64,000 bases of DNA from Escherichia coli (GTDB lineage Bacteria; Pseudomonadota; Gammaproteobacteria; Enterobacterales; Enterobacteriaceae). The notes beneath the pieces were generated by a model. The model was not told the DNA's origin. It did no database searches and saw nothing but the letters and a program-made list of their open reading frames with translations. Position numbers and translations under genes: made by a program. Shown piece after piece: positions 25,309-25,335 of the stretch. How positions within the stretch are numbered: the stretch's first letter is position 1; each line of letters opens with the position of its first letter. The stretch lies in NCBI RefSeq assembly GCF_051903065.1, contig NZ_CP178438.1; one strand, written 5' to 3'.

Positions 25309-25335
25309 TTTTCATAAATCTGTCATAAATCTGAC
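25309..25335 (+). promoter_or_regulatory. Pho boxes of the phoBR promoter
   Basis: ttttcataaatctgtcataaatctgac: tandem CTGTCAT-like repeats spaced 11 bp. Confidence 0.7.

Follow-up and report, generated by a model that had tools for sequence, protein, structure and literature searches.

The activating Pho box of the Escherichia coli phoBR promoter: anatomy, conservation and a rare apparent one-unit deletion allele

The Pho box of phoB is already known, and the closest described system is the phoBR promoter of E. coli K-12 (Makino et al. 1986/1988; Gao & Stock 2015, 2018; Fitzgerald et al. 2023). On a Pho box, the effector domains of PhoB~P are arranged head-to-tail on the two repeats, the TGTCA tracts corresponding to the major groove and the A/T spacers to the minor groove (Makino et al. 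1986/1988/1993; Blanco et al. 2002, 2011; summarised in PMC4415409 and PMC4447250), and the promoter-proximal PhoB protomer contacts region 4 of sigma-70 (review PMC4415409). For the phoB promoter, affinities of ~0.25 uM for an activation site and a Kd of 4.9 uM for a repression site have been reported, and mutation of the weak site approximately doubled promoter output and lowered fitness (PMC6194859). Reporter data have been published for this promoter as well (PMC6194859, PMC4447250). All statements made below on binding, affinities, the sigma-70 contact and the repression function come from this literature (PMC6194859, PMC4415409, PMC4447250).

A second well-suited comparison is the Pho box of phoA, whose published affinity is lower than that of phoB (PMC4447250). 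Like the phoB box, it consists of two 11-bp direct repeats, is followed by the -10 after 10 bp and is bound by PhoB in ChIP-seq. It differs in having a perfect TGTCA in both heptamers and in its G/C-rich minor-groove flanks, and the four bases that follow the box are likewise rich in G/C. Moreover, unlike for phoB, neither an adjoining third half-site nor a repression site is described for phoA. Outside the Enterobacterales, Diniz et al. 2011 are said to have found multiple Pho boxes in the phoBR promoter of Vibrio cholerae (cited in PMC6194859). The promoter of that species is likewise autoregulated via more than one PhoB site, for fine-tuning, whereas the number and arrangement of the extra boxes differ.

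Here we analysed a 64-kb stretch of E. coli DNA (the window, to which all coordinates refer unless MG1655 is named), which contains both the phoA and the phoBR loci. We consider it close to certain (probability about 0.97) that the element at 25309-25335 serves the E. coli phoBR promoter as its Pho box, an activating site with coupled weak repression. This assignment builds on the anatomy of the sequence, its match to a PhoB matrix, its identity to bound DNA and the conservation, across species and within E. coli, of the box and of its distance to the -10, all of which were directly observed. As the element is a textbook one, its confirmation adds no new biology.

Anatomy of the Pho box and of the phoB promoter

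Positions 25309-25335 contain exactly ttttcataaatctgtcataaatctgac. A sequence-only reading had described this 27-mer as two CTGTCAT-like heptamers with an 11-bp periodicity, located about 55 bp upstream of phoB. The observation is real, the sequence is as quoted and the Pho box was placed correctly from the letters alone. TTTTCAT and CTGTCAT are indeed present, but the count of two falls short, as the 27-mer really holds 2.5 repeats: it ends inside a third heptamer, of which it takes the first five bases. The complete array reads TTTTCAT-AAAT-CTGTCAT-AAAT-CTGACGC (n=3, spanning 25309-25337), and the heptamer starts at 25309, 25320 and 25331 bear out the 11-bp period. Two 11-bp direct repeats, each composed of a heptamer and a 4-bp A/T-rich spacer, thus occupy 25309-25330. 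The distance was estimated well too. The 27-mer covers the region 54-80 bp upstream of the phoB ATG (25390), its end being 54 bp and that of the 18-bp box 63 bp away. The features of the locus are listed in Table 1.

Table 1. Features of the phoBR promoter region and of the phoA promoter in the window
Feature	Position	Strand	Remarks
phoA promoter: Pho box CTGTCATAAAGTTGTCAC, 10 bp, TATAGT (6965-70)	box 6937-6954; promoter 6937-6970		19.7 bits
Activating Pho box TTTTCAT-AAAT-CTGTCAT	25309-25326	+	classical 18-bp definition; ChIP-seq motif register 25310-25327
Heptamer 1, TTTTCAT	25309-25315	+	5/7 vs CTGTCAT; followed by AAAT
Heptamer 2, CTGTCAT	25320-25326	+	7/7 vs CTGTCAT; followed by AAAT
Heptamer 3, CTGACGC	25331-25337	+	4/7 vs CTGTCAT; in phase, weak extra half-site adjoining the box
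Perfect tandem duplication, 2 x TCATAAATCTG	25312-25333	+	11-bp unit; one unit deleted in 3 of 5,426 E. coli genomes
Low-affinity auto-repression site AATGCGA CGTCA TTATG CGTCA GATTTAT	25325-25353	-	exact match to the phoB-rp oligo (PMC6194859)
Proposed -10 hexamer of the phoB promoter, CATAAT	25337-25342	+	starts 10 bp after the 18-bp box
phoB, response regulator binding the box, 229 aa	25390-26079	+	NF007546, 540 bits (cut-off 471); RefSeq
Intragenic PhoB ChIP-seq site in phoB, ATTCACAGCACTGTCATA	25492-25509	-	PMC10294691; 16.3 bits
phoR, sensor kinase, co-transcribed with phoB	26137-27432	+	NF008235, 890 bits (cut-off 390); RefSeq

The window was scanned with an 18-column PhoB matrix built from the motifs that Fitzgerald et al. 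2023 list for PhoB ChIP-seq (PMC10294691 Table 1). Of the 59 motifs in this source, the three located in the window were left out, so that 56 were used. The 18-mer at 25310-27 scored 21.09 bits and ranked first among ~128,000 positions (both strands of the 64-kb window), a high score against a matrix of experimentally bound PhoB sites. The sequence-only reading had suggested a comparison with a PhoB matrix, in which a missing match would have spoken against a Pho box; instead, the phoB box is the best match in the window. The training sites have a lower median of 15.0 bits, and none of 100 shuffled windows reached 21.09 bits (best shuffle 20.26 bits, mean maximum 15.1 bits). Ranks 2 and 3 were taken by the phoA box (19.65 bits) and by the intragenic site in phoB (25492-509, minus strand, 16.31 bits). 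The top three matches of the matrix are therefore all three published PhoB sites in the window, and the phoB box can be regarded as a positive control for the scan. When we searched for the consensus CTGTCATAWAWCTGTCAY with at most three mismatches, three matches were found in the 64-kb window compared to 0.22 expected. These were two registers at the phoB box, each with two mismatches, and the phoA box at 6937-54.

The locus is the same as in K-12, with the box, the -10 and the repression site equal letter for letter, and only the host strain differs. Comparison of MG1655 416900-417400 with the window showed that 2 of 501 bases differ, both of them coding, leaving the promoter unchanged. Over 115 bp (25270-25384), the window agrees in every base with the phoB promoter fragment that was used for EMSA with PhoB~P (Gao & Stock 2018, PMC6194859). 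In addition, the 18-mer 25310-27 equals TTTCATAAATCTGTCATA, the motif assigned to the sbcD/phoB peak in the ChIP-seq table of Fitzgerald et al. 2023 (PMC10294691 Table 1). This PhoB peak has a score of 11 and its centre at MG1655 417093 (PMC10294691), which maps to 25341 in the window, and the intragenic peak at 417245 maps to 25493. From the published work on the identical sequence, binding of PhoB~P and PhoB- and phosphate-dependent transcription would be expected here.

The intragenic site ATTCACAGCACTGTCATA belongs to the PhoB-bound landscape of the locus, and a regulatory role has not been reported for it. In the control stretch of Citrobacter werkmanii phoB (+100 to +350), the region corresponding to ATTCACAGCACTGTCATA contained a 16.4-bit match on the same strand.

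We infer that CATAAT is the -10 of phoB from its geometry, its conservation and the text of PMC6194859. In that work, two positions of the -10 were randomised and a mutant with CATGAT was described (Gao & Stock 2018, PMC6194859), in agreement with a wild-type -10 of CATAAT. A sigma-70 two-hexamer scan of 25150-25450 yielded no -35/-10 pair and no -35 match, a result that carries no information on the promoter of sbcD. The lack of a sigma-70 pair fits an activator-dependent promoter with the box in place of the -35. The box thus occupies the activating position, replacing the -35 at 10 bp from a -10 on the same strand.

The repression site overlapping the -10

The exact match to the phoB-rp oligo (Table 1) means that the 27-mer reaches into the repression site with its last 11 bases. 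This site consists of two antisense half-sites over the -10, separated by 5 bp, with their tracts at 25332-36 and 25342-46 and matrix scores of 3.2 and 5.5 bits. The locus therefore has the architecture of coupled activation and repression, in which a weak antisense pair with a 5-bp tract spacing overlaps the -10. The sequence-only reading had expected autoregulation of the phoBR operon. This is supported by the matrix match and by the regulator and kinase genes, phoB and phoR, which are encoded directly downstream of the box, as in a positively autoregulated two-component operon. It is not simple positive feedback, however, as the overlap of the repression site with the 27-mer indicates positive autoregulation with a coupled negative limb.

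The functional box could also be the second register, CTGTCAT+CTGACGC (25320-37), acting mainly as a repressor site that overlaps the -10. This register matches the consensus with two mismatches, its matrix equivalent at 25321-38 scores 12.3 bits (rank 8 in the window), and high PhoB is known to repress the phoB promoter (PMC6194859). On the other hand, register 1 reaches 21.1 bits and shares its activating geometry with phoA and the orthologous phoB promoters. Furthermore, the published repression site is the antisense CGTCA pair and not the 25320-37 register. In the TGACG tract at 25332-36, the antisense strand (CGTCA) agrees with TGTCA in 4/5 positions, compared to only 3/5 on the plus strand. 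We therefore find it highly unlikely that the second register is the functional box, and consider register 1 to be the activating site.

In an alignment of E. coli with other Enterobacterales, only the upstream tract of the repression site was conserved. The downstream tract, TGACG at 25342-46, is replaced by TGGCA in Citrobacter, TGGCG in Enterobacter and TGCTT in Photorhabdus. Judging from this lack of conservation, the negative limb may be specific to Escherichia. The -10 region also contains an imperfect direct repeat, TGACGCATAATGA / TGACGTCGCATTAATGA (25331-25358), which includes both TGACG tracts; of its two copies, the first alone is conserved in other Enterobacterales.

Conservation and genomic setting of the box

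To follow the box across species, loci were collected by a PhoB protein scan with one genome per species (80 loci), and each was represented by its highest matrix score within 250 bp before the inferred start. A site of at least 14 bits was found upstream of phoB in all 8 loci with a PhoB identity of at least 70% and in 17 of the 24 loci at 55-70%. These sites are located at -54 to -126 of the phoB start, mostly at 63-80 bp. Scores of 14 bits or more were absent from all 32 control stretches of 250 bp inside the same genes. Good sites were available for 27 promoters, the window included, and in 25 of them a TATAAT-like hexamer (at least 4/6) was present at exactly offset 27 from the site, compared to a mean of 1.4 and a maximum of 4 at the 71 other offsets. 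Of these 25 hexamers, 20 matched in at least 5/6 positions. The phoB loci of Vibrio carried a 19-bit box with the same offset to a GATAAT hexamer. From Enterobacterales to betaproteobacteria, 25 of 27 phoB promoters thus keep the same 10 bp between the box and the -10, which goes slightly beyond the published accounts that we found.

Below a PhoB identity of ~55% (Comamonadaceae-type betaproteobacteria, alphaproteobacteria and Firmicutes paralogues), no box immediately preceded phoB. The 250 bp before the gene resemble coding sequence in several such loci, so that phoB may be read through from the upstream gene there, possibly phoU; the missing box was not counted against the phoB box. Alignment of E. 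coli, Citrobacter, Enterobacter, Photorhabdus and Arsenophonus revealed a conserved island, TTCATAAATCTGTCAYAAAWCTGACGCATAATG, between diverged flanks, which is kept from E. coli to Photorhabdus.

Within E. coli, the 51-bp core at 25303-53 was 100% identical in 5390 of the 5422 matching genomes. Another 51-mer of this intergenic region (25245-95), used as control, was detected in only 4588 of 5426 genomes, a comparison that is semi-quantitative, as megablast requires an exact word of 28 bases. Of 5,426 complete E. coli genomes, 5,424 have a single copy of the 211-bp intergenic stretch, in every case flanked by sbcD and phoB. One record places this region on a replicon labelled as plasmid, which is probably mislabelled or chimeric.

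The box lies in the 189-bp gap that phoB shares with the divergent sbcD (minus strand, start codon 25198-25200), 109 bp from the sbcD start (25200), and the ChIP-seq table names the peak sbcD/phoB (PMC10294691). PhoB bound at this position might thus regulate the sbcDC operon, instead of or besides phoB. However, the RNA-seq values of sbcD were 274 in the wild-type and 271 in the phoB deletion strain (PMC10294691 Table 1), and this unchanged level in the absence of phoB argues against a role of the box in the divergent operon. Moreover, the repeats are oriented towards phoB, and the 10-bp spacing to a plus-strand -10 recurs in 25 of 27 species, whatever the upstream neighbour. Regulation of sbcDC from this box is therefore largely refuted, and we see only a very slight chance for it. 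A terminator-like hairpin at 25241-25224 (minus strand), upstream of the sbcD start, was taken as a chance match.

A purely fortuitous AT-rich tandem repeat devoid of regulatory function is an explanation of negligible probability. PhoB motifs do resemble AT-rich or H-NS-bound DNA, most PhoB sites detected by ChIP-seq are intragenic, inert and unconserved (Fitzgerald et al., PMC10294691), and short two-copy repeats are common. However, the box scores above all shuffles, and the explanation is already refuted by the conservation of the site and its -10 spacing across gamma- and betaproteobacteria, by a core that hardly varies among 5,422 E. coli genomes, and by mutational, EMSA and reporter data published on the exact sequence (PMC6194859).

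Four insertions interrupt the collinearity of the window with MG1655 394.7-440 kb, to which it is otherwise ~98.7% identical. Two of the insertions (13874-16589 and 16960-17321) lie between ppnP and rdgC and include an IS1 transposase ORF (15260-15763). This ORF appears to split a larger gene, the C-terminal part of which, with DUF2773, is found at 15765-16931 and is followed by an SF0329-family ORF (16928-17383). A 1.6-kb insertion between malZ and acpH (32581-34170) contains a 461-aa ORF (32768-34153) that has no Pfam match; other E. coli strains have a hypothetical protein annotated at this place. The 2-kb insertion between pgpA and yajO (46798-48780) harbours a 523-aa pentapeptide-repeat ORF on the minus strand (46979-48550). 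A scan of the whole window with Rfam at the gathering threshold gave zero matches.

Proposed regulation of phoBR and an apparent one-unit deletion allele

Under phosphate limitation, PhoR would phosphorylate PhoB, and a dimer of PhoB~P would bind head-to-tail to the two 11-bp repeats at 25309-25326(30). As these repeats sit where the -35 is missing, 10 bp upstream of CATAAT (25337-42), bound PhoB would be expected to recruit RNA polymerase via region 4 of sigma-70 and to raise transcription of phoBR, resulting in positive autoregulation. Once PhoB~P becomes abundant, it would also fill the ~20-fold weaker antisense half-sites over the -10 (25325-53) and limit expression. The strain studied here is accordingly predicted, by its identity to the K-12 promoter, to show positive autoregulation at low PhoB~P, capped via the weak site at high PhoB~P.

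In strain N4220121, exactly 11 bp are missing from the box, corresponding to one TCATAAATCTG tandem unit. We searched 5,426 complete E. coli genomes with a query spanning the deletion junction (E <= 1e-12) and found three carriers, namely 2021CK-00607, N4220121 and isolate 30348_1#89. The carrier assemblies are GCF_025398375.1, GCF_059230735.1 and GCF_964041535.1. The deletion is located at ~10020-10040 of the carrier loci (L085, L086 and L087). A query for an expansion to three units found no carrier among the 5,426 genomes. Over 9.9 kb, two of the carriers do not differ at all, whereas 181 substitutions (98.15% identity, 1.85% difference) set the third apart, which also has another gene content near malZ. 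This indicates that the deletion is present on at least two backgrounds. A perfect 11-bp tandem is a substrate for slippage, and the occurrence on two backgrounds fits slippage between the perfect repeats. That so few genomes carry the allele agrees with selection acting to preserve the box.

With one unit missing, the activating-register 18-mer no longer scores 21.0 bits but only -2.9 bits, and the strongest site left (10.1 bits) overlaps with the -10. Both phoB and phoR are intact. Provided that the deletions are real rather than assembly artefacts, these might be natural strains in which positive autoregulation by PhoB has been lost or strongly weakened, a reading of the sequence that we put forward as tentative and somewhat doubtful. 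One-repeat deletions in natural E. coli appear not to have been described yet. If this reading is true, the deletion strains would be ready-made tests of why PhoB autoregulation is kept and of its fitness value.
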